The notes under the pieces were generated by a model, which did no database searches, was not told the origin of the DNA, and saw only the letters and a program-made list of their open reading frames with translations. The position numbers and the translations under genes are program-made. Of a stretch of DNA of 20,000 nt, positions 6,462 through 19,969 are shown piece by piece. Source of the DNA: an uncultured virus (IMG/VR IMGVR_UViG_3300001580_000009) (Duplodnaviria > Heunggongvirae > Uroviricota > Caudoviricetes); IMG/VR virus record IMGVR_UViG_3300001580_000009, one strand, 5' to 3'. Numbering within the stretch: the first letter of the stretch is position 1; every line of letters begins with the position of its first letter.

Positions 6462-7364
6462 ATGTCTACAATACCCGCAATCAAAAAACCCGTAAATTAT
6501 CTAAACAATAAGGACATTCTCAAAGAGATTCATGAGAGCAAAAATTCTTATTGTTACTTTTCTAAGCAGGAATATCATCGTTACGATCTAATCGTCGATG
6601 CTGCCCACGATGAGTTAAACAAAGCACTAGAAACAGTGCTTAATCCCGAAAATATTCAAACAGCAAAAGAAAATCGAGCCAATCGACTTTCAGTAGAAAC
6701 TGGTCAAAAGATTGACCCAAATGATATTCCTACTACTGATTTAGTATTTAGAGTGATGACTTGGGAGCATATTCCCGTTTCACCCAAGCAACCACGTAAA
6801 GTTACAAAAAAGAAAACGGCAAAGGACATCATTGAATTTGAAGATGATTCCGAAGATGAGCTATTTGCTGACTTAGAAGATTCTACAACCAAAGATGAAG
6901 TTGACGACATGGTGCATGTTAAGGTCAACTTCCCACCATTTCAGCATTTTAAGATTGACGAAAATGGTTCATTCAAATGTGTAGGCAAAAGTCATTGGAT
7001 CGGCGGAATCAAAACTGGACATTTCAGCAAAGACCACGGTAGGATTACCGATAAGTTAGCCCGAATGTATATTCTTCTTTGCGAAAAATATTCAATGAAG
7101 TTCAATTGGCGCGGATATACTTACAACGATGAAATGCGCAATAGCGCCATTCTTCAGTTAACTTATGTAGGTTTACGATTCAACGAAGCTAAATCGGCTA
7201 ATCCATTTGCTTATTACACTGCTGCCATCAATAACAGTTTCTGTCGTGTATTGAATACCGAAAAACGCAATCAAAATATTCGTGATGATATTTTAGAATT
7301 GGCTGGGTTAAACCCAAGTTGGTCACGCCAGAGTATGAGTTCGGGCGCTTCATACGAAGAATAA
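6462..7364 (+). CDS. gp55: Late-transcription sigma factor, T4 gp55-like
   Basis: N-terminal VNYLNNKDILKEI, plus NWRGYTYNDEM and FNEAKSANPFAYYT motifs. It lies immediately upstream of gp47/gp46, as in many T4-like phages. Confidence 0.85.
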   Translation: MSTIPAIKKPVNYLNNKDILKEIHESKNSYCYFSKQEYHRYDLIVDAAHDELNKALETVLNPENIQTAKENRANRLSVETGQKIDPNDIPTTDLVFRVMTWEHIPVSPKQPRKVTKKKTAKDIIEFEDDSEDELFADLEDSTTKDEVDDMVHVKVNFPPFQHFKIDENGSFKCVGKSHWIGGIKTGHFSKDHGRITDKLARMYILLCEKYSMKFNWRGYTYNDEMRNSAILQLTYVGLRFNEAKSANPFAYYTAAINNSFCRVLNTEKRNQNIRDDILELAGLNPSWSRQSMSSGASYEE

Positions 7365-7414: not shown

Positions 7415-8431
7415 ATGACTAACCTATTCAAAAAAGCAGCCGTTTTTACGGATATTCACTATGGCCTAAAGTCAAACAGTCTTCAACATAACCAAGACTG
7501 TGCCAATTTCGTAGATTGGTTTATTACTACTGCCAAAAAAGAAGGGTGTGAAACTTGTTTTTTCTTGGGAGATTGGAATCACCATCGTGCAAGCATTAAC
7601 ATTCACACACTACAGTTTGGTCTGCAAGCTTTAGAGAAACTAAGTAGGGCATTCGATAAAGTCTATTTTATTCCCGGAAATCACGATCTATATTATCGTG
7701 ATCGCAGGGACATTCATAGCGTAGAATGGGCTAAACATCTACCCAATTTAACAATCGTCAATGACTTTTTCTCAGAAGGTGATGTTGTCATTGCCCCATG
7801 GTTAGTACAAGAAGATTACAAAAAATTAAAGAAATACAGCGGGAAATACTTATTTGGGCATCTTGAACTACCACGTTTCTACATGAACGCAATGGTAGAA
7901 ATGCCCGATCACGGTGAAATTAACGAAGACCACATGACTGGCTTCGAAATGGTGTTCAGCGGTCACTTTCACAAGCGCCAAAGTCGTAAGAATATTTGGT
8001 ACATCGGTAATGCTTTCCCGCATAACTATGCTGACGCAGGTGATGACGCACGAGGCATGATGATTTTAGAATGGGGTCAAGAACCTGTTTTTAAGTCATG
8101 GCCTCGTCAACCCATCTATCGTGTTTATAAGCTAAGTGAAGTATTAGATAAGCCAGAAGGCTATCTATTGATTGACTCACATGTGCGTGTTCACTTGGAT
8201 ATAGACATAAGTTACGAAGAGGCTAATTTTTTGAGGGAGACTTTTATTCCAGAGTATAAACTCCGTGAGATGACTCTTATCCCCATCAAAAGCGAGGGAA
8301 TAGAACAGGGCCAAAATTCTGATGGGTTGAAATTTGAATCAGTAGATCAAATTGTCATAGACCAGATTAATGCGATTGAGAGTAAGAACTTTGATAAGAA
8401 GGTTTTACTAGATATCTACAACAACTTATAA
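7415..8431 (+). CDS. gp47: Recombination endonuclease subunit, Mre11/SbcD-like metallophosphoesterase
   Basis: Has the DIH, GDWNH, GNHD, GHL and SGHFH metallophosphoesterase motifs, and is adjacent to a Rad50-like gene. Confidence 0.93.
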   Translation: MTNLFKKAAVFTDIHYGLKSNSLQHNQDCANFVDWFITTAKKEGCETCFFLGDWNHHRASINIHTLQFGLQALEKLSRAFDKVYFIPGNHDLYYRDRRDIHSVEWAKHLPNLTIVNDFFSEGDVVIAPWLVQEDYKKLKKYSGKYLFGHLELPRFYMNAMVEMPDHGEINEDHMTGFEMVFSGHFHKRQSRKNIWYIGNAFPHNYADAGDDARGMMILEWGQEPVFKSWPRQPIYRVYKLSEVLDKPEGYLLIDSHVRVHLDIDISYEEANFLRETFIPEYKLREMTLIPIKSEGIEQGQNSDGLKFESVDQIVIDQINAIESKNFDKKVLLDIYNNL

Positions 8432-8941
8432 GACAGGAGTCCAACCTTTGACAGCTTTTCGTTTTCCTTTGAAAATCTGATTGACTGTCCCTTTGTTGGC
8501 TCCATATGTCTGTATGAAATTGTATCTGGTCATGATTACTTCAGTTCCGTCTTTATGACGCCAAATATACTCTGTATGATTATACCTGTAATTTCGTTCA
8601 CCTGTGTGAGCCAAAGAATTTTTAGTAAGAGTTTCGGTTGTTTTTTGAGGGTGATATTTGCCGCAAGCAAATCCCCCACCGTCTTCAGGAATAAGATTAG
8701 CCCATTGCTTACTCTCAGCAACCGACCATGCTTTGCTATAAAACAGGCCCCAACTTTTTAATGATTCTTTTGAAAAGCACTTTTGTAAAATGTATGTATC
8801 ATGCTCTTTGCCGTGCTTTTTAAGATGACGCTTCCAGACTGTTCCCGATCCTTTGTAATTGAATGGATTTTGTACAGTCTGACAAAGATATTTCAACCCA
8901 GTGATGCGGTGGGTCTTAACTAATAGGTAATAAATAGTCAT
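8426..8941 (-). CDS. Free-standing GIY-YIG-like (Seg-type) homing endonuclease
   Basis: Begins MTIYYLLVKTHRITGLKYLCQT...YKGSG...WANLIPE (a degenerate GIY-YIG layout) with a basic C-terminal DNA-binding-like tail. The likely start is ATG at 8941, with GAGGAG 7 nt upstream (8949-8954), rather than the track's start at 8956. Confidence 0.7.
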   Translation of the reverse strand: MTIYYLLVKTHRITGLKYLCQTVQNPFNYKGSGTVWKRHLKKHGKEHDTYILQKCFSKESLKSWGLFYSKAWSVAESKQWANLIPEDGGGFACGKYHPQKTTETLTKNSLAHTGERNYRYNHTEYIWRHKDGTEVIMTRYNFIQTYGANKGTVNQIFKGKRKAVKGWTPVL

Positions 8942-9008
8942 GCTGATGCTCCTCAATAGCGTTAGAGTAGTTGGGAATCCCCATTCCGCGAACTACACTT
9001 TTATTTAT
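8942..9008 (-). promoter_or_regulatory. Late promoter motif plus structured 5' leader of the endonuclease gene
   Basis: On -: ATAAATA (9002-9008), then the hairpin GTAGTT-CGC-GGAAT-GGGG-ATTCC-C-AACTAC (8967-8996), then the GAGGAG RBS. Confidence 0.6.
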
Positions 9009-9055: not shown

Positions 9056-11128
9056 ATGGTAACAATTAAGAATATCACCCTGCGAAATTTTTTATCTATC
9101 GGAAATGTTACTCAAGCAGTAGATTTTGACAAAAAAGATATTACACTAATCTTAGGCGAAAACTTAGACTTAGGTGGCGACGGTGCTAGAAATGGCACCG
9201 GTAAAACCACTCTTATCCAAGGACTTAGTTATGCTTTGTTTGGTGTTCCCATTAATAGCATTCGCAAAGATAACTTAGTAAACCGTACTAATACTAAAGG
9301 TATGATGGTTACACTTGAGTTTAACGTCAACGGAACTGAATACAAAATTGAGCGTGGTCGCAAGCCTAATATTCTTAAGTTCTACGTAAATAACGTACAG
9401 CAAAAGGCTACTGAAGACCAGCAAGGCGAGAATAAAGAAACCCAAGCTGCGATTGAGCGGGTACTGAACATGACACCCGAAATGTTCAAACATATTGTTG
9501 TTTTGAACACCTACAGCGAACCATTTTTAGCCCTAAAGAACAATGAACAACGTGAAATTATTGAACAACTTTTGGGCATCACTTTGCTTTCAGAGAAAGC
9601 CGAAGTCGTCAAGGATTTGATTCGCCAAAGCAAAGATGATATTCAACAAGAAGAATTTAGAATCAAAGCTGTTGAAGAAGCCAATAAGAGAGTCAAAGAA
9701 CAAATTGATGCACTTAAGCGTAGACAAACGCTTTGGGTTAAAAAGCACGACGAAGACCTTAAAGCCTTAGTAGATGCATACGACGAATTGATCAAAATTG
9801 ATATTGCAAAAGAACTACAAGCCCATAAGGACTTGGTCGTTTGGAATTCTCAAAAGCAACAACAGGATACCTATAACGCATTGCTTGCTAGGTCTACTGC
9901 TTGGAAGCAAAAGCACGACAAAGAAGTTGCCGCTGCGGAGAAGGCGTATCTAGACAAGAATCGTTACAATATTGATGATGAACTACACGCTTGGGCTCAG
10001 TTAAAACTATGGGAGCAAGAAAAAACTGTTCAAGATAATCTTGCTACTGAAATTGCTACCCAAACCAAAAACGTAGAAAAAGAAAAAAAATTAATTTCTA
10101 AACTAGAAAAAGAGGTTCGGTCACTAGAAGATCACAAGTGTTATGCATGTGGTCAAGATTTCCATGATGAGCAGCACGACAAGGTTCTAAATACCAAGCG
10201 CGAGGATTTGAATCATGCAGTTACTCAGTTAACAGAGTTAAAGGCAAATCTAGATAAAAACAAAAGTCTCGTCAAAGAGCTAGGCCCCAAGCCTACAACT
10301 CTGTATAAGACAGAAGCTGAAGCTATTCGTCATTCTAGTGACCTTGAGAATCTTAAGAAAGCATTAGAAGAAAAAACAAGAGAAACAGACCCATATGCTG
10401 AACAACTGTCGGAAATGACCGTTGTAGAAGTTGGTCCTATGCCGGTTACTCATTATGATACTGAGCGTGAGGCTATTGAGCATAAGAGTCAGTTGGCTAA
10501 CTTAGTAGATCAAATCGAAAAGAAGGCTCATGAAACCGATCCATATACTGATCAAATTGCTGATATGGAGAAGGATGCGATCCAAGAAATCAGTTTTGCG
10601 AAAATCAATGAAATCACGAAAACCATGGAGCACCAAAAGTTTTTGCTTGAATTACTCACTAACAAAGATTCATTTGTTCGTAAGAAGATCATTGATCAAA
10701 ACCTTTCTTACCTAAATGCTCGTTTAACTAATTACATTGATAAGATCGGTTTACCTCATCAAGTTGTATTCAAGAATGACTTACAAGTTGAAATCACTGA
10801 ATTAGGTCGTGAACTTGACTTCGATAACTTAAGTCGCGGGGAACGAAACCGACTAATCTTGAGTCTAAGCTTCGCATTCCGTGACGTATGGGAGAACTTG
10901 TACGCACCGATTAATACGCTGTTCATTGACGAATTGATTGACTCAGGTCTTGACACTATGGGTGTTGAGAACAGCATCGCCATCTTGAAAGACATGAGTC
11001 GTAGACGACAAAAGTCAATCTGGCTTGTTAGTCACCGTGAGGAACTTGCGGGGCGTGTACCTAGCGTACTCAAGGTTGTAAAAGAGGGCGGCTTCACAAC
11101 ATATTCTAGCGCAACTGATATTGGATAA
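9056..11128 (+). CDS. gp46: Recombination endonuclease ATPase subunit, Rad50/SbcC-like
   Basis: Walker A NGTGKT, coiled coils, zinc hook CYAC (10139-10150), signature LSRGE, Walker B LFIDE and H-loop VSH. Confidence 0.95.
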   Translation: MVTIKNITLRNFLSIGNVTQAVDFDKKDITLILGENLDLGGDGARNGTGKTTLIQGLSYALFGVPINSIRKDNLVNRTNTKGMMVTLEFNVNGTEYKIERGRKPNILKFYVNNVQQKATEDQQGENKETQAAIERVLNMTPEMFKHIVVLNTYSEPFLALKNNEQREIIEQLLGITLLSEKAEVVKDLIRQSKDDIQQEEFRIKAVEEANKRVKEQIDALKRRQTLWVKKHDEDLKALVDAYDELIKIDIAKELQAHKDLVVWNSQKQQQDTYNALLARSTAWKQKHDKEVAAAEKAYLDKNRYNIDDELHAWAQLKLWEQEKTVQDNLATEIATQTKNVEKEKKLISKLEKEVRSLEDHKCYACGQDFHDEQHDKVLNTKREDLNHAVTQLTELKANLDKNKSLVKELGPKPTTLYKTEAEAIRHSSDLENLKKALEEKTRETDPYAEQLSEMTVVEVGPMPVTHYDTEREAIEHKSQLANLVDQIEKKAHETDPYTDQIADMEKDAIQEISFAKINEITKTMEHQKFLLELLTNKDSFVRKKIIDQNLSYLNARLTNYIDKIGLPHQVVFKNDLQVEITELGRELDFDNLSRGERNRLILSLSFAFRDVWENLYAPINTLFIDELIDSGLDTMGVENSIAILKDMSRRRQKSIWLVSHREELAGRVPSVLKVVKEGGFTTYSSATDIG

Positions 11129-11176: not shown

Positions 11177-11827
11177 ATGTTTATCAACAACGAATCATAT
11201 AATAGATATTATGAAATAATTGAGAGGGCTAATTCTATATGTCCTCGAAATGTGAAAAAGACAGAGGCAATGAAGATCAGAGGCTATATCGAAGACCATC
11301 ATATCATACCCAAATGTTTGGGTGGCCCTGATGTGATTGCTAATAAAGTTTGGTTAACTGCTGAAGAACATTTTATGTGCCACAAGTTATTAACCGAAAT
11401 GACCGAAGACAATGCCAATGGTAAAATGTGGAGCGCTTTGTGGCGAATGATGAATAAGCAAAGTAAAAATCAAGATCGTGATTATATAGTTGATGCCAAA
11501 GAATATGCCATAGCAAGAGAACAAAACGCAAAAAATCATAGTACTAGAATGAAGGGCACTCTAAACCCGTTTCATAATAAAAAACACAGCACCGCAACAA
11601 AAGAAGTCATGTCTTCTAAGAAAAAAGGGAAGACTTATGAAGAAATATTCGGGGCAGATAAGGCAAAGGAAATGCGAGAGCGCAGGAGCAAAGAAGGTCT
11701 AGGTAAAGCTAAAGGCCCGCAAGAAAAAATATCATGCCCGCATTGCGGCACCCTAGGAGGGTTCAGTATAATGAAGCGTTGGCACGGTGATAAATGTAAA
11801 TTTATCAATGATAAACACATAGCATAA
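11177..11827 (+). CDS. Free-standing HNH (Mob-type) homing endonuclease with NUMOD3-like repeat and C-terminal Zn-finger-like motif
   Basis: EDHHIIPKCLGG...NKVWLTAEEHFMCHKLL (HNH), NPFHNKKHSTATKEVMS (NUMOD3-like) and CPHCG...RWHGDKC. Confidence 0.85.
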   Translation: MFINNESYNRYYEIIERANSICPRNVKKTEAMKIRGYIEDHHIIPKCLGGPDVIANKVWLTAEEHFMCHKLLTEMTEDNANGKMWSALWRMMNKQSKNQDRDYIVDAKEYAIAREQNAKNHSTRMKGTLNPFHNKKHSTATKEVMSSKKKGKTYEEIFGADKAKEMRERRSKEGLGKAKGPQEKISCPHCGTLGGFSIMKRWHGDKCKFINDKHIA

Positions 11828-11835
11828 GTAACTCT

Positions 11836-12402
11836 ATGACAAGTCCACAGAAAGCAAAAGGTTCCAGTTTTGAGCGAGAGGTCGCTACGTATTTGAGTAA
11901 ACTCTACGGAGAGTCATTTATTCGCGCTCCTGGATCCGGCGCTTATGTGGGCGGTAAGAATCAGCAACGTAAGGAATACTTACATGAGGGACAAGTTCGT
12001 TCTTTCAAGGGCGATATTGTTCCTGGACAGAGTTTTCCTTTGTTTAATGCTGAATGCAAAAGTTATGCAGACTTTCCGTTTCATCTTGTTTTAACAGGCA
12101 AATGCAAGCAATTAGATGGTTGGTTAGACCAGCTAATGGATGTGGCTGAACCAAATGACATAAATATCTTGTTCATGAAATTCAACCGCAAAGGCAAATT
12201 TGTCTGCGTCCAAAGTAAATTTACTTGGATTACTGATCAATTTTTATACTACACATCTGAAAAACACAATGATTGGATTATAATCGAGTTCAATCACTTC
12301 TTTACTCATAACAGAGACATCCTCAAATCCTATTCAGGCTCAAAATCCCAACTCATAGACACCAAGTCAGGCATTTTAAATATTAATACTACTCAGGTTT
12401 AA
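11836..12402 (+). CDS. PD-(D/E)xK nuclease, probable Hjc-like Holliday junction resolvase
   Basis: KAKGSSFEREVA...GDI...AECKSY matches the E...D...ExK layout of Hjc-type resolvases, and the gene sits in the recombination cluster. Confidence 0.75.
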   Translation: MTSPQKAKGSSFEREVATYLSKLYGESFIRAPGSGAYVGGKNQQRKEYLHEGQVRSFKGDIVPGQSFPLFNAECKSYADFPFHLVLTGKCKQLDGWLDQLMDVAEPNDINILFMKFNRKGKFVCVQSKFTWITDQFLYYTSEKHNDWIIIEFNHFFTHNRDILKSYSGSKSQLIDTKSGILNINTTQV

Positions 12403-12423
12403 TTTTTAGGCTCAATGTTGTTT

Positions 12424-12845
12424 AGTCGGGGCACCTCGACTCTCCTTGAGATTGTACAGGTTGTGCTGTGCCGTCGGATTCTGGAGTATAGCACGGGGTT
12501 ATATTGATCTTTTCAAAAGAAAGAGATATAACACAAAAACCCGTGGAACACCGAGAGGGCAATCGACAAAGCGAACCCTCAACAAACCTATAGGAAATTC
12601 TGTCTTGCTTCTATAGGAGTGCGTTGCCGAGGCATTAGAAAGCGTTTTATACCCTTAATTCTAGTAGTACTCACTACAGTCCCAATAAAAACCTTACAGG
12701 GCAACCGGTGGCGAATAGTAGCAGTGTAGTAGCTGATTATTCGTGGGAATAGACGGCAAAGGATGACGGGCTGGCATACAGTTTTGTCCATTTGGTAGTG
12801 CTAAAATAGCACTACCATGGCTTCAGAGCGGCAATGTATTAGCCC
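12424..12845 (+). ncRNA. Candidate large structured non-coding RNA (family unassigned)
   Basis: No credible ORF. At least seven local hairpins and five long-range helices, whose non-Watson-Crick positions are almost all G-U on the + strand (details in findings). The boundaries are approximate. Confidence 0.7.
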
Positions 12846-12882
12846 TCATACGAAATTAAACAGAATATAAGACGATACAAAT

Positions 12883-12932
12883 TACCGAACGAGTACGAAG
12901 TACGAGTGAAGGTAGATGTCCGAAGGACATCT
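12883..12932 (+). other. Two adjacent C-GAA-G triloop hairpins
   Basis: TACC-GA-AC-GA-GTAC-GAA-GTAC-GA-GT-GAA-GGTA (12883-12914) and AGATGTCC-GAA-GGACATCT (12914-12932). Confidence 0.6.
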
Positions 12933-12944
12933 CTAAAGATAAAC

Positions 12945-13175
12945 TTAAAAGAATGGCATTTGAGATTTCTTAGTTACTTCCATGTTGTGGTCAATAAGTT
13001 CATCAATCTGTTTTCTCTCCATAGCGGACATATTAAGGATATCCTCATAGGATGCTCCCCCTCTCATATGCCACGCTAGCGATAAAGCGTTTTTCTTTAT
13101 CGCTATAACGTCTTTCTCGTAACTCTCTAACAGCTTCGTTATGCCTTCGTGGCTAAGGTGTAGAAGCCTTAACCG
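12945..13175 (-). CDS. gp51-like / tail chaperone 'GT'-like segment, probably translated by -1 frameshift from the upstream ORF (absent from the ORF track)
   Basis: Open frame RLRLLHLSHEGITKLLESYEKDVIAIKKNALSLAWHMRGGASYEDILNMSAMERKQIDELIDHNMEVTKKSQMPFF*. The first ATG is only at 13067 (40 aa), and the frame begins at the slippery site. Confidence 0.7.
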   Translation of the reverse strand, partial: RLRLLHLSHEGITKLLESYEKDVIAIKKNALSLAWHMRGGASYEDILNMSAMERKQIDELIDHNMEVTKKSQMPFF

Positions 13176-13999
13176 AAAAAATCACTGGCATTCAACGTGA
13201 ATGGTTGCTTGTATTCATTTCCGCAATGTACGCACTTGATCTGTAATGGTTGCATTTCAGTTTGTGCCTTCAATTCAGAGTTATGGTCTCTTATTGCTAC
13301 GTATACATTCTTATCACAGTTTTTCAAGAAATCTAAGATAAAATCTGATTTGTCAACCAAAACAGTAGGTGTCTTGATATATTCAATAGTTTTAGCTAAA
13401 ATGTTCATTGTTAAATCGGTTATAGCTTTTAACGCTTCTTGATTCTTTTTGGTACGTTCAGTAGCGTCTACGATCTTTTCCATACCCTGAAACATCTTTT
13501 GTATTTCCACTTGATCGATACTGGCTTCATTCATTTCTTTGTACGTTAATGGTCTAAACTTGATTTTTAGATCATGAACGGCTAATTCAGTATCATAATC
13601 CCCGGCTTTTAATGTAGCCAATGCTGCTACCAAATTAACACCGTATGTAGCAACTTCTTCACAAGAAGGGCATTGAGACTCTATTTCAAGACCCTCACTA
13701 TTATCAGCAGCCTTAATACCAATTAGGATAGCATCCAAGTCGATACTGGTAATAGCCCATGGATCTTTTACTGCAGGTACACAACTTTTAATTAATTCAG
13801 ATACCGCAGTACCGTTGAACAAAGCATCAGGTGTTTTTGCTGTGATTTCGTCAATCGCAGTCATGGGATAGACCGGCAATTCTCCAGTTTCGGGCATTTC
13901 AATTACTCCTGGAGCATAATGTTTACCACCGCTGGGTAGTCTAAGATATACTGCGGGTCTTCTGAAATACTGTCTTAGTGGATTATTGTCTAGTGCCAT
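13169..13999 (-). CDS. gp26: Baseplate hub assembly chaperone, T4 gp26-like
   Basis: LPSGGKHY, PMTAIDEI, IDLDAILIGIK, two CxxC motifs (CPSC, CVHC), IKFRPLTY, and a C-terminal DFFG. Confidence 0.75.
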   Translation of the reverse strand: MALDNNPLRQYFRRPAVYLRLPSGGKHYAPGVIEMPETGELPVYPMTAIDEITAKTPDALFNGTAVSELIKSCVPAVKDPWAITSIDLDAILIGIKAADNSEGLEIESQCPSCEEVATYGVNLVAALATLKAGDYDTELAVHDLKIKFRPLTYKEMNEASIDQVEIQKMFQGMEKIVDATERTKKNQEALKAITDLTMNILAKTIEYIKTPTVLVDKSDFILDFLKNCDKNVYVAIRDHNSELKAQTEMQPLQIKCVHCGNEYKQPFTLNASDFFG

Positions 14000-14033: not shown

Positions 14034-14053
14034 ATAAATACATAGATATTTAT
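14034..14053. promoter_or_regulatory. Pair of oppositely oriented late promoter motifs
   Basis: ATAAATA on + (14034-14040) and ATAAATA on - (14047-14053), between the divergent gp26-like and tape-measure-like genes. Confidence 0.7.
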
Positions 14054-14064
14054 TGGATAAAATT

Positions 14065-17000
14065 ATGGCTACAGAAAATCTTGATCCGGAAATCATGCGA
14101 GAACTCAATGAGTCTATGCAAAATCTCGGTGACGGGATGCGAGAATTCACTGATGTAATGACCATGATGATAACCGGTGGCGCTGATATGTCATCAGCGA
14201 TGCGTAGTGCGACCGGGGCAACTCGCGGGTCAGAGACAGCCATGAAGTCATGGAACGATAGAGTAAGAGAAGCGGCTAAAGCCGCTGAATTAGAAGCCGA
14301 AAGCAAACGGAAACAAGCTGAACAAAACGCTAATTTAAAACAAGCATTCAAGTCTATGCAGGATGCAGCAGGTGGCTTCACTAAAGCTTTACTCGACACA
14401 AGCTCAGGATTTCAAAAATATGAAGCATCGATAAAGAGCACAACCGGCGCCGTAGGTAGCCTTTTGCAAAATTTTGGATATATGGGTAAAGCTGTAGCTC
14501 TAGCAACGGATGCGATAGGCAAGCTTGCAGGAGCAACATTAAAGCAAACTGATGACATAGTTAAAGCGTATGATTCATTGGCAGGGATCGGTGGATCAGT
14601 GGGATTAACCGCTGAAGAAATTGTAAATTTGGGTAAAAACGCCGGATTTACAATTCAAACATTAGAACAGTTTACGAAAAGAGCCAAAGAATCAGGTACC
14701 AATCTTATGGCTATGGGTGATTCTGCTACTGGAGGAATCAAAGCCTTCAGTCAAGTTGTGGCTGTCGGTGAGGATGCCCTTAAGAAATATCGTAGATTGG
14801 GCATGACTCAAGAAGATTTGATTGAAGCACAAAGAACATACATACGACAACAAATTGAGGGCGGCCAATCACTTAAAAAGAGCCCAGAACAATTACAAAA
14901 AGCTTCATTAGCATACATTGATCAATTAAACACTCTTGCTGAGTTAACTGGCATTAACGTCAAGAAACAGCAGGAAGCCATTGATATTGCAAACGCAAAC
15001 GAGAACTTTAATGCCTATAAGTTTTCAATGGATCAAAAAGCGTTAGCTTTAGAACAGGAAGAACAGGAAGCAAGAAAATTAGGCCAGACTGCACGTGCCG
15101 ACGAATTAAAAGCGCAAGCAGAACAAATACGTAACACAATAGCAGCTAAAGAAGAATTTGCTAAACTAGCAGTTAGCACCATGAGTGCTTCCAATGCTGC
15201 TGCTGCATTAGAGTCCATTTCTACTGACGGAACTACGATTATCACAGAAAATAATCAAAAATTAGTTCTAGCAGGTATTGATGTCGTTAAGATGAACGAA
15301 GAAATGAACAAAGGCAGAAAACAGTCAGCGGAGTTATTGGGTTCTCAGGTAACGGCTGCTAAAAACTTCTCGAATCAATTTGGAGTCATGGCATATGGTA
15401 TGGGCAAGGCATCTAAAGACTTGCAGCAGACATATGGCGTTGACAACGAGATGCGAAAAACTGCCATTGAGTTTGCAAAATTGGAGACTGAGGAAGAACG
15501 AAAAGCCTTTATTGCAAGACAGGCGCAGGCGCAAAAAGATTTAGAAGCAAAGGGTAAGGAGGGCGTTAAAGGGCAAGAAGTCATGGATGCGACTGCTACC
15601 AAAGAAAGTTTGGAGCGTCGTGCTAGATCCGTATATGATGCAATGATCGGCGCCATAAACCCATTCAGGGGCAAGATGCTTGAAGCCTCTATGGTAGTAG
15701 TTGGATTATCAGCAGCAGCGGTCGCAGCGGCTTCGGCATTAAACAAAATTGCCAAGTCTAGATTTGGTGTTGGTATAGACGATTTAATGGATGGTAAAGA
15801 TTCTAAAGGTAAATCTAAACCCACAGCCAAACCCAAATCCAAGAAGCCTCTGAGTGGTGCTGCTAAAGCATCACATGAAGCCAAAGTAGCAAGAGAAAGA
15901 GCAGCCAAAGCAAAAACTATTAAATCTGCCGGTAAATTCACAGTAGGTGGTATGATAGCCGGACTGGGCTTAGATTATGGTTCTGAAATGGCGAAAGAGG
16001 CTGGTCACGAAAAAACGGGCGCAGGTCTTGATATAGCAAGTTCGGCTTTGTCCGGCGCTAGCATGGGTGCTTTACTAGGTAGTATAGTACCTGTTATCGG
16101 TACTGCTGTTGGAGCAGCAGTCGGCGGCGCGCTCGGTGGGGCATATGGAGCATATCAAAACCGTGACGCATTTTTCGGAGACAAGAAACAGGAAGAAACA
16201 CAAAATAAAGTTGAGAAGAAACCATTAGATGTACCCAAAGCATCGGAAGGTGGTAGTTTCTCGGGACCTAAAGAAGGCTACTTAGTTGAATTACACGGTG
16301 ATGAAGATGTTATTCCGAGAAAAGGTCGTCAGCCTGAAGAATTGAATACTCTGGGAGCATTGAACAATACATTAAGCAATGCTCTATCAGCTCCTAAGGA
16401 CTATGTAAAGCAGGCTACTGTTGACACTACTGGCATAGAATTAGCAGGAGATGTAGCCGAAAAAGCTACTGAAAAGGTAATAGCTAAATTAGTACCACAA
16501 TTAGCAGTGGTTTCTAAAGTAGCATCTTCGATAGATAAATTAGACTCGGTACAGAAAATATTCTCAGAAAAATCCAGTCCAATTGAAAAACTTTGGGAAG
16601 TAGCAAAATTGCTACATCCTGCAGCGAGAATATTAGGTACTGCAATAGATATAGTTGCGCCATTGATTAAAGATGCGAATAATCAAACTCCTGTTGTAGC
16701 TCAAACTAAGAAAGATACGACAGTAGATACTGAGAACATAGAAAAAGAATTACCAAAAGCCGCTTCAGGTGGTATATTCAAGGGGCCTAAGTCCGGTTAC
16801 CCTGTAGAATTGCACGGTGAAGAAATGGTAGTCCCGTTAACAGGTGAAAAATTTGATAAGTTGTTTGAAAAAAATGATTCTCCGCTGCCTAGATTAGAGC
16901 TAGTAAAAGAAGCTAAGAGTTTAGAAGATTTCAGCACTGCAGTAAAAGACACAGACGCCGTCCTGAAAAAATATACTTCAACATTAATTAAACTTCGTGA

Positions 17001-18189
17001 TTTAGAGGACGACGAATTAGAAAAGCAAGAAGATAAGGCCACATCGTTAGACAAATCACAAGACAAATTGAACAATGTTTTCTCTGAAGCCGTAATTGAT
17101 TTAGCAAGATTTACTAAGCAGATCAAGTTTGCAACAAGACAACTTCCCGAAGCAGGAACACCATTACAAACAGGCTACGGTGGAGTTGTAACTTCTGGCT
17201 CAGGAGCACCGGTTACTTCAGGAGTACCGGCAGCCGAACCATCCAAAACAGCACCATCGGCCCCGGTAACCACAAGACCATCACCAGTTAGTACAACTAG
17301 TGATATGGCAGGATACTTGAAAAAAGTTGCCGTTGTTGAGTCAGGTGGAAAAGCAGGAGCACAAGCAGGAACCTCTAGTGCTAGTGGGTTGTTCCAGTTC
17401 ACCGCAGGAACATGGAAGCAGATGGTCAAAGAAATGGGCAAAGACTATACCCTAGAGGATAGATTTGATCCCAAGAAATCTGAAGAAGTAGCAGCGTATT
17501 TTACAAGTAAACAAAGGGCCCAGCTTGAAAAGGGCACCGGCCAGCAAGCTACGGATACTGATATGTATATGGCCCACTTCTTGGGAGCAGGCGGCGCCAC
17601 AAAATTCTTGAATGCCCTAAGACAAGATCCAAATGCTCCAGCAACAGCCGGGGCTACAGAACAACAGATTAACGCAAACTTATCTATATTCGTCACAAAG
17701 GATGGTAGGCTCCGCACTTTACAAGAAGTTTATGATTTGATGGCCGGTAAGCTCGAAAAAGCCGAACAGCGAATCGCTCAAGGTAAAGTTTCAGACTCTG
17801 TTAAGAATATAGGTGGTGATCAACCAACACCACAGTATGCTCAGGTTAAGAAAGAAGAATTACCCAAAGCACGCGACGGGGGGTTATTCTCTGGTCCTAT
17901 GACAGGTTATCCAGTAGAATTACACGGTGACGAACTAGTTGCCCCGTTAAATGCCGACAATATCATTACCAAACTTATTAATAACACAGTTACTAGAGAA
18001 CCGGCGGTAGCGGAAACAACTACGAAAGTAGAAACAACGACCGCAATGTCATTAGAAATGATGCGAGAAATTCAGACTGCTAACTCCGAAATGATAGCTG
18101 TTTTGACGGAAAAATTGGACTCAGTGATAGATAAACTAGCATCCAGTAATGATATTCAGGATAAAATATTAACCTATTCTAGGGGCTAA
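14065..18189 (+). CDS. Tape-measure-like tail protein with lytic transglycosylase (SLT-like) domain
   Basis: Long Ala/Gln/Lys-rich helical protein with a glycine-zipper segment (GALLGSIVPVIGTAVGAAVGGALGG). SLT-like motifs VES...SASGLFQF...TW...YMAHFLG lie at about 17314-17610. The likely start is ATG at 14065 rather than TTG at 14053. Confidence 0.75.
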   Translation: MATENLDPEIMRELNESMQNLGDGMREFTDVMTMMITGGADMSSAMRSATGATRGSETAMKSWNDRVREAAKAAELEAESKRKQAEQNANLKQAFKSMQDAAGGFTKALLDTSSGFQKYEASIKSTTGAVGSLLQNFGYMGKAVALATDAIGKLAGATLKQTDDIVKAYDSLAGIGGSVGLTAEEIVNLGKNAGFTIQTLEQFTKRAKESGTNLMAMGDSATGGIKAFSQVVAVGEDALKKYRRLGMTQEDLIEAQRTYIRQQIEGGQSLKKSPEQLQKASLAYIDQLNTLAELTGINVKKQQEAIDIANANENFNAYKFSMDQKALALEQEEQEARKLGQTARADELKAQAEQIRNTIAAKEEFAKLAVSTMSASNAAAALESISTDGTTIITENNQKLVLAGIDVVKMNEEMNKGRKQSAELLGSQVTAAKNFSNQFGVMAYGMGKASKDLQQTYGVDNEMRKTAIEFAKLETEEERKAFIARQAQAQKDLEAKGKEGVKGQEVMDATATKESLERRARSVYDAMIGAINPFRGKMLEASMVVVGLSAAAVAAASALNKIAKSRFGVGIDDLMDGKDSKGKSKPTAKPKSKKPLSGAAKASHEAKVARERAAKAKTIKSAGKFTVGGMIAGLGLDYGSEMAKEAGHEKTGAGLDIASSALSGASMGALLGSIVPVIGTAVGAAVGGALGGAYGAYQNRDAFFGDKKQEETQNKVEKKPLDVPKASEGGSFSGPKEGYLVELHGDEDVIPRKGRQPEELNTLGALNNTLSNALSAPKDYVKQATVDTTGIELAGDVAEKATEKVIAKLVPQLAVVSKVASSIDKLDSVQKIFSEKSSPIEKLWEVAKLLHPAARILGTAIDIVAPLIKDANNQTPVVAQTKKDTTVDTENIEKELPKAASGGIFKGPKSGYPVELHGEEMVVPLTGEKFDKLFEKNDSPLPRLELVKEAKSLEDFSTAVKDTDAVLKKYTSTLIKLRDLEDDELEKQEDKATSLDKSQDKLNNVFSEAVIDLARFTKQIKFATRQLPEAGTPLQTGYGGVVTSGSGAPVTSGVPAAEPSKTAPSAPVTTRPSPVSTTSDMAGYLKKVAVVESGGKAGAQAGTSSASGLFQFTAGTWKQMVKEMGKDYTLEDRFDPKKSEEVAAYFTSKQRAQLEKGTGQQATDTDMYMAHFLGAGGATKFLNALRQDPNAPATAGATEQQINANLSIFVTKDGRLRTLQEVYDLMAGKLEKAEQRIAQGKVSDSVKNIGGDQPTPQYAQVKKEELPKARDGGLFSGPMTGYPVELHGDELVAPLNADNIITKLINNTVTREPAVAETTTKVETTTAMSLEMMREIQTANSEMIAVLTEKLDSVIDKLASSNDIQDKILTYSRG

Positions 18190-18202: not shown

Positions 18203-19969
18203 ATGACCTACAAAAAGAAATTCTTAAATAAGAGCGGTGTATCCAGTCCCATATCCGGTGCTAACAGTAATTCGGGTGCCTGGAACAACGATGCTTCAAG
18301 TGGTAATTGGAGTAACCTAGACTGGGGATACCGAAACTATATGAGTCGGCTCCCGGAAGTCTACACGGGTCATCCGAACCGTATTGAACGATATAATCAG
18401 TATGAAATGATGGACGTTGATGCTGAAATTAACGCATGTTTGGACATCATCTCTGAGTTCAGTACACAAAAGAACGAACACAACAAGACACCATTTAGTT
18501 TTGAATTCAAAGAAGAACCCACTCCCCACGAAGTAGAATTGTTAAAGACGCAACTACAACAGTGGTGTAAGCTGAATGAGTTTGATGTAAGAATTTTCAA
18601 GATTTTCCGTAATGTTATCAAGTACGGTGATCAAGTATTCGTCAGAGACCCTGAAAACTTCAAGTTATGTTGGGTTGATATGGTCAAGGTCATTAAGGTC
18701 ATCGTAAACGAAAGTGAAGGTAAGAAGCCTGAGCAGTATGTTCTAAAAGACCTCAACATTAATTTACAGAATCTTTCAGTAGCTCAAAAGACAAATACAG
18801 ACTTTGCTGCTAACCCTGCAACAGGTTTGGGTGGATCAGGTGGCGGAACAAACACACCTTACACTGTCCCTTCTATGCCCTATAATACAACAGGTAGTAG
18901 ATTTACATTGGGACAAAGTGAAGCAGCAGTTGATGCTAAACATATTGTTCATTTGAGTCTAACAGAAGGTCTAGACAGATTCTGGCCTTTCGGTCAAAGT
19001 ATCTTAGAGAACATCTTTAAGGTATACAAGCAAAAAGAATTATTAGAAGATGCGGTACTAATCTATCGGGTCCAACGTGCTCCTGAGCGTAGAATGTTCA
19101 AGATTGACGTTGGGAACATGCCAAGTCACATGGCTATGGCATTCGTAGAACGCATCAAAAACGAAATACACCAGCGTAGAATCCCATCATTATACGGTGG
19201 GCAGTCAATAGTAGACGCCACATACAACCCTTTGTCAATGAACGAAGACTACTTCTTCCCTGTTACGGCAGATGGTAGAGGATCTTCTGTAGAGGTTCTA
19301 CCTGGTGGCCAAAACTTAGGTGAGATTGATGACTTAAGGTATTTTAACAATAGACTAGCACGTGGTCTACGAGTACCTAGTTCATATCTACCTACTGGCC
19401 CTGACGACAATACAACCCCATTGAGTGATGGTCGTGTAGGTACTGCAATGATTCAAGAGTTCAGATTTAACCAATATTGTGAACGTTTACAAAACTACAT
19501 GGTTATGAAATTGGACGAAGAATTCAAATTATTCTTGCGCTGGAGAGGCTTTAATATTGATAGCGGATTGTTTCAATTAAAGTTCAACCCCCCTCAAAAT
19601 TTTGCAGCATATCGTCAAAGTGAGTTAGATACCGCAAGAGTCAGCACATTCAGTACGATGGAAGCGTTCCCTTATATTTCTAAACGTTTTGCTCTTGAAA
19701 GGTTCTTGGGTCTAACTGAAGAAGAAATTGCCAAGAACGAGAAATTATGGCGTGAAGAACACGATACTGACCTTACAGAAGAACCTAAGGGATCTGATCT
19801 TCGTAACATTGGTGTCAGTGTAGGAGATATTGAATCTGATTTGGAAACAGGTGAAGAGTTAGAAACGCCACCTGAAGGCGAAGAAGCAATGACGGCACCC
19901 GAAGTTGCAGGTCCAGTATCATCAGCCCCCGGAGCACCCGTCGCCGGTGCTGGAGCACCAGTAGCATAA
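18203..19969 (+). CDS. gp20: Portal vertex protein, T4 gp20-like
   Basis: LEDAVLIYRVQRAPERRMFKIDVGNMP, EDYFFP and LPGGQNLGEIDDLRYF are hallmark gp20 motifs; the C-terminal tail is acidic. Confidence 0.95.
   Translation: MTYKKKFLNKSGVSSPISGANSNSGAWNNDASSGNWSNLDWGYRNYMSRLPEVYTGHPNRIERYNQYEMMDVDAEINACLDIISEFSTQKNEHNKTPFSFEFKEEPTPHEVELLKTQLQQWCKLNEFDVRIFKIFRNVIKYGDQVFVRDPENFKLCWVDMVKVIKVIVNESEGKKPEQYVLKDLNINLQNLSVAQKTNTDFAANPATGLGGSGGGTNTPYTVPSMPYNTTGSRFTLGQSEAAVDAKHIVHLSLTEGLDRFWPFGQSILENIFKVYKQKELLEDAVLIYRVQRAPERRMFKIDVGNMPSHMAMAFVERIKNEIHQRRIPSLYGGQSIVDATYNPLSMNEDYFFPVTADGRGSSVEVLPGGQNLGEIDDLRYFNNRLARGLRVPSSYLPTGPDDNTTPLSDGRVGTAMIQEFRFNQYCERLQNYMVMKLDEEFKLFLRWRGFNIDSGLFQLKFNPPQNFAAYRQSELDTARVSTFSTMEAFPYISKRFALERFLGLTEEEIAKNEKLWREEHDTDLTEEPKGSDLRNIGVSVGDIESDLETGEELETPPEGEEAMTAPEVAGPVSSAPGAPVAGAGAPVA

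Follow-up and report, generated by a model that had tools for sequence, protein, structure and literature searches.

What lies between the convergent genes for a PDDEXK-type endonuclease and for the baseplate hub protein gp26 in the uncultured virus IMGVR_UViG_3300001580_000009? The 20,000-nucleotide (nt) stretch analysed here, called the window throughout, is part of a T4-related phage and lies within a 23,872-base record of that virus. A first-pass annotation of its letters had flagged 12424-12845 as a candidate + strand RNA with several pseudoknots, of ribozyme or scaffold scale and outside the known families. Comparison with related loci bore this central proposal out: the most conserved word of the region, a hairpin named P9 below, was found in at least 120 viral contigs, covariation among the homologs is strong, and no Rfam family matched. 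We conclude that 12425-12932 is, in all likelihood, a real pseudoknotted RNA gene, read from the + strand and belonging to an uncatalogued family. From the sequence comparisons, it is best explained as a free-standing, single-copy gene present across a large clade of uncultured T4-related jumbo phages.

Homologs were first sought through the gp26 protein, which gave 38 viral loci with gp26 40-67% identical to that of the window. At 36 of them the DNA following gp26 is 63-76% identical to the gap of the window, and a gap free of open reading frames (ORFs) is kept, measuring 638-892 nt, or 1308-1618 nt at loci with an additional inserted ORF. The gap is conserved in blocks, with near-invariant stretches set beside hairpins that vary in both sequence and length. 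The gp26 search and a search for the P9 word together yielded 86 unique full-length sequences, whose cores are 47-60% identical to that of the window. A covariance model (R1), built from 34 compact homologs (the window core exceeds 400 columns), matches all 86 with 210-368 bits; in the window its match covers 12440-12833 and scores 259 bits. Because most of these homologs had been fetched via the P9 word, a second sample was drawn by a gp26 protein profile alone, comprising the best 80 of at least 572 relatives; samples chosen through gp26 take away the selection bias towards P9. R1 matches 73 of these 80 loci, 65 at full length and 8 cut at a contig end, and the seven others stop 75-386 nt past gp26, short of the modelled region. 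Five phage records of 258,859-524,565 bp, of which two are rated complete, each gave a single copy with this model, the additional weak rows in those records being the palindromic P9 read on the opposite strand.

The fold was assessed on a plain MAFFT alignment of 85 sequences that was not fitted to any fold model (A1), on a model-fitted alignment of the homologs (A4) and on a model-fitted alignment of 60 distinct sequences of the second sample (A6). RNAalifold predicted 69 pairs from A1, 50 with compensatory changes, and a mutual-information scan then showed two crossing pairings, PK1 and PK2. In A1, 95.0% of 7029 cells are paired; shuffling lowers this to 81.8%, and sliding the 3' partners to 33-44%. 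Both sides have changed in 61 of 84 pairs, and the covariation score is 0.399 compared with 0.157 for shuffled alignments. None of 500 shuffles reached any of these measures. The corresponding values are 96.2% of cells and 64 of 85 compensatory pairs in A4, and 95.5% and 52 of 75 in A6. The first-pass annotation had named conservation and covariation at homologous loci, and folding energy relative to shuffled sequence, as checks of its candidate; both came out in its favour. The + strand of 12403-12945 folds at -168.1 kcal/mol against -136.4 for 100 shuffles (z = -5.03), with z = -3.36 for the - strand (also 100 shuffles).

A fold with crossing helices had been foreseen, and in this general sense the prediction stood, both pseudoknots being supported by covariation; the particular set of five long-range helices drawn from the window, A to E, did not. 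Helices A, D and C are paired in 71.6% of cells against 71.8% when shuffled, with covariation of 0.091 against 0.093, and helices B and E in 49.8% against 49.3%. The 3' strand of B (12752-12758) has its real partner not at 12469-75 but in the loop of hairpin P6a, where it forms PK1. Likewise, 12829-12840, the partner given to 12618-12629 in helix C, shows no covariation, and 12623-28 pairs with 12700-05. The complementarity of these helices in the window comes from the conserved G+C-rich words they connect, and it is not maintained when the sequence changes in other loci. The 3' limit at 12845 was also set too short, as the RNA continues through two further hairpins, P10 and P11, to 12932. The conserved core spans 12425-12845 and the whole RNA 12425-12932 (+), about 400-510 bases.

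As shown by covariation, the predicted architecture comprises a 5' hairpin (P1), a small P2 domain and a central junction closed by P4 and carrying P5, P6 and P7. PK1 and PK2 lock this junction to the 3' domain, and P3 and P7a are peripheral hairpins that tolerate large insertions. The seven local hairpins of the first-pass annotation all recur in this scheme. Its hairpin at 12424-12441 is P1 (12425-30/12435-40, GUCGGG/CUCGAC), directly 5' of the conserved CUCCUUGAG; folded singly, each of the 86 homologs has a hairpin there of 5 bp or more (mean 6.3 bp) with a clade-dependent sequence, and P1 appears only 66.9% paired in A1 because MAFFT misaligns it. Within 12442-12486, P2 (12442-45/12483-86, CUCC/GGAG) and P2c (12448-49/12480-81) are 99-100% paired and nearly invariant, the C12445-G12483 pair of P2 changing to U-A in 2 of 85 sequences; in P2b (12450-51/12474-75) and the P2a hairpin (12454-57/12468-71), 5-6 of 6 pairs are compensatory. 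The conserved 5' word (A/U)CCUCCUUGAG at 12442-12450 contains CCUCCUU, which we take to be the same letters as the 3' end of 16S ribosomal RNA, and its CUCC pairs with GGAG in P2. P2 may in this respect resemble a Shine-Dalgarno/anti-Shine-Dalgarno duplex, possibly by coincidence. P3 (12491-12545, earlier drawn at 12492-12545) ranges from about 12 to more than 60 nt between homologs, whereas its six basal pairs are 98.8% paired and all compensatory in A4.

The central junction is closed by P4, whose 5' strand (12549-12553) pairs with 12706-12710 in 100% of cells, with 3 of 5 pairs compensatory and with UA 51, CG 20, UG 9 and AU 5 at the closing pair in A1. Position 12693 covaries with both members of this closing pair, 12549 and 12710 (12693-12710: UA 50, CG 17, UG 13, AU 5), and may form a base triple or an alternative pair with it. 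P5 (12555-59/12576-80) and its inner part P5a (12563-65/12572-74) match the hairpin earlier placed at 12555-12580; they are 100% and 99.6% paired, with 4 of 5 and 2 of 3 pairs compensatory in A1. The next arm (12582-12620) consists of P6 (12582-83/12619-20) and P6a (12587-94/12610-17), the latter being the earlier hairpin at 12587-12617. Compensatory changes affect 2 of 2 and 8 of 8 of their pairs in A1 (11 of 11 in A4), and the loop of P6a (12600-12605) supplies the 5' strand of PK1. P7 (12623-28, GUUGCC, with 12700-05, GGCAAC) is 96% paired, 4 of its 6 pairs being compensatory, as in GC 75, AU 7 and in CG 77, UA 8 in A1. Its 3' strand is followed by that of P4 (12706-10), the two making up 12700-12710. 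Inside P7 lies the variable hairpin P7a (12629-12672), with an outer stem (12629-31/12670-72) that is 80% paired and 4 of 4 compensatory in A4 and an inner stem that is the earlier hairpin at 12634-12665; its length is highly variable, and about 100 nt or more are inserted in one homolog (L114). Two conserved strands, ACUACAG and CUUUACAG, also lie within P7: the columns of ACUACAG (12673-79) and C(U/C)UUACAG (12692-99), both single-stranded, are at least 90% conserved over 85 sequences.

Two crossing pairings connect this junction to the 3' domain. PK2 (12680-83, UCCC, with 12745-48, GGGA) crosses P7, P4 and P8. It is 94.3% paired with 4 of 4 pairs compensatory in A1 (96.0% paired in A4), and its pair 12680-12748 is UA in 50 sequences, CG in 15, AU in 10 and GC in 3. 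PK1 (12600-05/12751-56, AGACGG) is 98.0% paired with 5 of 6 pairs compensatory in A1 and is among the top mutual-information pairs (UA 60/CG 23; AU 42/GC 40; CG 58/UA 24). P8 (12713-12742; 12713-19/12736-42 and 12720-22/12732-34), proposed earlier at 12711-12744, is 94.8% paired with 9 of 10 pairs compensatory in A1 and 97.9% with 10 of 10 in A4. The segment 12757-12792 holds a purine-rich conserved GGAUGAC, the first of two twin words (12770-12778) and a tentative helix, S2 (UGG 12773-75/CCA 12789-91 in the window, AUGG/CCAU in most homologs), that is 74-80% paired. An H-type pseudoknot at 12766-12792, combining GGG/CCC with AUGG/CCAU, was considered and rejected: its first stem fails because the letter K, when G, often stands opposite A, and its second is just the one paired at 74-80%. 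P9 follows (12793-12817), a 9-bp hairpin with the stem UGGUAGUGC/GCACUACCA and then an invariant UGG, and after it the second twin word, GCGGCAAU (12828-12835). An A-rich linker (12846-12882), poorly conserved, rich in gaps and variable in length and sequence, separates the core from P10 and P11. P10 (12883-12913) has a conserved CGAAC...GUGAG with tandem G-A pairs, a GAA loop and a covarying stem (AU 39/CG 32; GC 42/UA 22). P11 (12914-12932) is 98% paired with 6 of 6 pairs compensatory in A1, and carries a GAA loop or, in several homologs, loops of the GNRA type (GAUA, GUAA), on the + strand only.

Other helices covary freely while the stem of P9 is nearly frozen in sequence. Its exact form is present at 35 of the 38 loci first found through gp26, one of the remaining loci being cut short (L025) and two lacking the stem (L036 and L038). 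P9 was invariant in the first homolog sets; in the second sample, drawn through gp26, 99.3% of its cells are paired and 3 of its 9 pairs show compensatory changes, for instance GGUAGAGC/GCUCUACC and GGUAGGGC/GCCCUACC, which supports the hairpin that had been read as a perfect stem at 12793-12817. The twin words on either side of it (12770-78 and 12828-35) vary together across the 86 homologs as identical, not complementary, letters: positions 12770 and 12828 are GG in 42, TT in 19 and GA in 13 of the 86, and joint changes include a C insertion, GGCA to AGCA, and CAA to CAG or CAU. No complementary strand for the twin words was found inside the RNA, and none that is consistent within 4 kb on either side. 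A search of prokaryote genomes for the P9 word returned one match, on a Chitinophaga vietnamensis contig, which we judged to be due to chance because R1 has no match there and the genome has no T4-type portal.

Comparison of the paired cells also bears on the strand. The 7029 cells comprise 6335 Watson-Crick, 345 G-U, 77 A-C and 272 other combinations, and the predominance of G-U over A-C favours the + strand, as had been argued from the window itself. The region lacks a conserved ORF, again in agreement with the earlier claim: the three ORFs that the window has in this region have open, in-frame counterparts in 4, 0 and 12 homologs out of 84, and the variable hairpins alter the length out of frame between homologs. 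Downstream of the RNA there is no + strand gene, the next genes (an extension of gp26, described below, and gp26) being convergent on the - strand, and the RNA is therefore not a leader or riboswitch.

The ends of the transcript are less sharply marked. A candidate promoter of one subclade is the word TAAAAAT, which 34 of 86 homologs carry in a fixed position, -27 to -25 relative to the model start and 5-8 nt 5' of P1 (background 0.017 per 45 nt); three loci (L006, L007 and L015) have TATAAT-like words upstream. Scanning the gap for sigma-70 promoters and terminators gave nothing above chance, and the exact T4 late promoter consensus, TATAAATA, does not occur in the whole window. Late genes of the window are preceded by AATAAATA or CTAAATA, upstream of 13999 (-), 14053 (+), 18203 (+) and 6342 (-), and these words likewise lie upstream of gp26 in loci L008-L018. 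They are a variant of the T4 late promoter as judged against the same consensus, and differ from the TAAAAAT word. At the other end, P11 is likely the 3' end or terminator of the RNA, and P10, followed by a U-rich run when read on the - strand, probably serves as a terminator of the convergent gp26 transcript too. Given the U runs after P11 (+) and P10 (-), the two hairpins may be back-to-back terminators.

Known RNA families account for none of this. At gathering score no Rfam family matched the window, and at E<=10 the interval 12200-13300 gave six weak and unrelated matches (including mir-124, snoRNAs and a coronavirus untranslated region) of 9-20 bits against gathering scores of 45-103, among which only the Deltacoronavirus 5' untranslated region (13.1 bits, 12755-12872) overlaps the core. 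No Rfam family was found at E<=1 in 20 diverse homolog loci, nor in three cultured relatives and the divergent locus L036, both discussed below. The Rfam comparison that the first-pass annotation had put forward therefore left its suggestion of novelty intact. ARAGORN detected 0 transfer RNA (tRNA) or transfer-messenger RNA (tmRNA) genes in the 20-kb window. A tmRNA was rejected on that result and for lack of a match to the Rfam tmRNA models, and RNase P RNA, group I and II introns and small self-cleaving ribozymes were set aside because no Rfam model of theirs matched. Among 50,697 phage records, no match at the DNA level was obtained either with the gap as query (distant mode) or with the surrounding 7 kb (near mode), and full-text searches of the literature gave no description of the RNA.

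The genes around the RNA were named with Pfam and PHROGs. From left to right, the window holds a gp5-like hub gene (1-1851, -) and the genes for the gp55 late sigma factor (6462-7364, +) and gp47 (7415-8431, +), a homing-endonuclease-like ORF (8426-8956, -), gp46 (9056-11128, +), a second homing endonuclease (11177-11827, +) and the PDDEXK_15 endonuclease, a RusA-like resolvase according to PHROGs (11836-12402, +). Beyond the gap lie gp26 (13169-13999, -), a long SLT-domain protein (14053-18189, +) and the gp20 portal protein (18203-19969, +). The gap between the PDDEXK and gp26 genes measures 766 nt (12403-13168), and the earlier description of it as free of ORFs applies to its left part and not to its right third. 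In a MAFFT alignment of 22 unique homologous gaps, 12945-13168 is gapless and the rest gapped; on the - strand, 12945-13181 is a stop-to-stop frame of 78 codons that has no start and overlaps the gp26 stop. Immediately before this stop the - strand reads GAT TTT TTC GGT TAA and thus contains a slippery T TTT TTC (slip site 13174-13180). This frame is probably a -1 programmed frameshift extension that would yield a long form of gp26, as in a gp26/gp51-like pair. Since the right third codes, the true non-coding part is 12403-12944 (about 542 nt), within which the RNA begins 22 nt past the PDDEXK stop and ends 13 nt short of the stop of the gp26 extension.

Some relatives carry additional ORFs in the interval from the 3' end of the RNA to the gp26 extension, free-standing and resembling homing endonucleases. 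Examples of inserted ORFs are L033:5116-5628 (phrog_314 match, 1.5e-13), L036:5097-5762 (NUMOD3 and phrog_314) and L001:4997-5689, for which no family was matched. At two further loci (L006 and L007) a SegE-type GIY-YIG homing endonuclease gene stands upstream in place of the PDDEXK gene, and the RNA is intact. The RNA gene seems to be a landing zone for homing-endonuclease elements.

What might such an RNA do? We propose that it would be transcribed after the recombination and resolvase genes, ending at P11, and would act in trans through its three-dimensional fold. Dependence on the fold is suggested by the covarying helices, the invariant junction strands, the two pseudoknots, the insertion-tolerant periphery and the lack of a gene in cis. 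As to mechanism, the one we find most likely, and put forward tentatively, is that of a scaffold or decoy RNA. Its binding partner would recognise particular sequences, those of the frozen P9 helix and the twin words, and would probably be a dimeric protein, encoded by the phage or by the host; the pseudoknotted core would provide a rigid frame for this binding. A partner with two like sites is favoured because P9 is frozen amid covarying helices and is flanked by co-evolving identical words. Much of the same architecture would suit a ribozyme, self-processing or trans-cleaving in the RNA or DNA metabolism of the phage, with the pseudoknots and invariant junction nucleotides as its active site. 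In size and build the RNA resembles a ribozyme (a closed multi-helix junction, two pseudoknots and peripheral hairpins that accept insertions), ACUACAG, CUUUACAG and GGAUGAC are invariant and unpaired, and nucleases are close by (gp46/47, the PDDEXK endonuclease and the homing endonucleases). However, none of the Rfam ribozyme families matched (window at E<=10, 20 homologs at E<=1) and there is no conserved processing site or substrate to name, so that we regard a ribozyme as unlikely; an intron can be dismissed because the RNA is not inserted in a gene. Assembly into an RNA-only multimer, by analogy with the homo-oligomeric complexes described for RNAs of the GOLLD and ROOL type (PMC12286853), seems to us distinctly unlikely. 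The GOLLD (RF01998) and ROOL (RF03087) models had no match in the window, in 12200-13300 at E<=10 or in the 20 homologs at E<=1.

The location of the RNA, fitted exactly between two convergent genes at 22 nt and 13 nt from their stops, could also be taken to mean that it acts in cis, as a long structured 3' untranslated region serving to stabilise or terminate the messages of PDDEXK and gp26, or as an antisense control of the gp26 extension; the resemblance of P10 and P11 to a terminator pair and the lack of a clear promoter of its own in the window would agree with this. Yet terminators and stabilisers need no 400 nt or so with 60 covarying pairs, two pseudoknots and invariant junction strands, and the variable linker parts the core from P10 and P11. 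Moreover, the RNA is intact in the two loci with a GIY-YIG gene, not PDDEXK, upstream, and 34 of 86 homologs have the fixed promoter-like word in front of P1, all of which makes a purely cis-acting role improbable in our judgement. We give least credence to a DNA-level or primer element, in which the stretch would fold as single-stranded DNA or within an R-loop for replication, recombination or packaging. It does adjoin gp46/47 and a junction-resolving nuclease, and the tolerance of G-T pairs in single-stranded DNA means that the strand bias by itself is no proof of RNA. Against this very improbable alternative stand the GNRA and GAA loops, pseudoknots and tandem G-A pairs, which are typical RNA motifs, the lack of iterons and of an AT-rich unwinding block in a region of unremarkable G+C content (0.41-0.44), and the position at a site where transcription converges, not diverges.

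Several observations nevertheless weigh against a separately transcribed RNA gene with a protein partner. Besides the G-T pairs that folded single-stranded DNA would accept, the P9 word was required for 80 of the first 118 homolog loci, in which the invariance of P9 is thus there by construction, and A4 and A6 lean towards the fold model, as A1 does not. The window and its nearest relatives have a different sequence at the position of the TAAAAAT word, and P11 is followed by a weak U run, which reads CUCUAAA in the window and CUUUA in the majority of homologs; for these reasons the RNA could be a processed 3' part of the PDDEXK transcript. As for function, no partner protein, complementary target or catalytic motif was found, and the scaffold or decoy mechanism is suggested by the conservation pattern.

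We also asked what occupies this locus in more distant phages. The cultured relatives with the closest gp26 (about 30% identity) are Agrobacterium phage Atu_ph07, Pseudomonas phage PA5oct and Escherichia phage PBECO4, which also have unannotated DNA between gp26 and the resolvase gene. R1 found nothing significant at these loci with filters off, nor in the whole records; for PBECO4 the best score at the locus was 3.6 bits (E 9.1), with nothing in the whole record at E<=1. The four non-coding RNAs that Table 1 of PMC7318152 gives for PA5oct lie elsewhere in its genome. PBECO4 carries a different large RNA-like element at four places, near 38, 94, 195 and 305 kb. The syntenic copy (L162 4538-5373) has a TATAAT word upstream, a strong terminator and a fold z of -3.5 on that strand. 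The gap that this copy occupies is the one used by the RNA of the window; in PBECO4 it is bounded by the small ORF that follows gp26 and by the resolvase gene, an endonuclease VII gene, and the element is again read towards gp26 and of similar size. It also shares CGUUGC...ACAGAGCAACC and a GGGCA..GAACCC.CUCA hairpin in the same order, and the CGUUGC...ACAGAGCAACC helix covaries in the PBECO4 copy c195k (GUCAU/AUGAC). It differs in occurring at four places in the PBECO4 genome, compared with one for the present RNA in each of the five jumbo-phage records, and in having no P9 hairpin. An nhmmer profile of the present family gave nothing on the PBECO4 loci at E<=100, and common descent of the two RNAs would be a lead to follow, the shared words having no statistical support. 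Among the environmental loci, R1 gave nothing significant on L036 and L038. The most divergent environmental relative (L036:5763-6449, -; gp26 47% identical) has, in a different order, a hairpin like P9 whose stem letters are altered (GGUAGCAGC/GCUGCUACC) and one like P6a, with UUUUGUCUUGG in its loop; this region may be a diverged or rearranged form of the RNA.

Since the cultured RaK2-like phages have another large RNA in this gap, jumbo T4-type phages may in general possess an RNA gene between the resolvase and gp26. A bolder reading, which we consider rather doubtful, is that the RNA is a new double-pseudoknotted class and a fixed single-copy part of a giant T4-related lineage, the positional counterpart and perhaps distant relative of the RNA of RaK2-like phages. 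If so, jumbo myoviruses would generally carry an essential part of some RNA machine beside their junction-resolving nuclease and baseplate-hub genes, be it a ribozyme, an assembly of RNA alone or the RNA component of a ribonucleoprotein recognising the twin words, with a standing comparable to that of phi29 pRNA, although unrelated to it. To our knowledge, few large RNAs combine many covarying pairs with several pseudoknots, and nearly all that have been studied are ribozymes, cores of ribonucleoproteins or, lately, RNA-only cages. The RNA described here is supported, from comparison of sequences alone, by more than 100 distinct sequences, about 60 covarying pairs and two pseudoknots with covariation, and occupies a single, constant position in phage genomes as large as 525 kb. 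The alignment is sufficient for designing probing, cryo-electron microscopy and pull-down experiments, and the frozen P9 and co-evolving twin words offer a concrete handle for a partner search.

Among known systems, bacterial RNase P RNA and group I introns resemble the present RNA in size, in a build of junction plus pseudoknots and in combining a conserved core with a variable periphery, but differ in that the latter has no Rfam match, is not inserted in a gene and has no recognised signature sequences of those families. The phi29 pRNA (RF00044) is a trans-acting structured phage RNA of an assembly machine, about 120-170 nt long. It would be analogous as a phage-encoded structured RNA acting in trans, the type of job that we favour here; it is much smaller, and the present RNA has no Rfam match and no evidence ties it to packaging or the virion. 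A further likeness is to GOLLD and ROOL, which are known for their large sizes and frequent neighbourhood of tRNA genes, and with which the first-pass annotation had compared its candidate. The comparison holds in kind, as all are large, intricate, pseudoknotted phage non-coding RNAs of unassigned function that came out of comparative analysis of environmental DNA, and not as membership of the same family, for which no covariance model matched. The present RNA is smaller (core of about 400 nt), has no tRNA genes in the 20-kb window and belongs to T4-related jumbo phages, where it is fixed between a resolvase-type nuclease and gp26. With no detectable relation to either, it joins GOLLD and ROOL in kind as a large orphan phage RNA.

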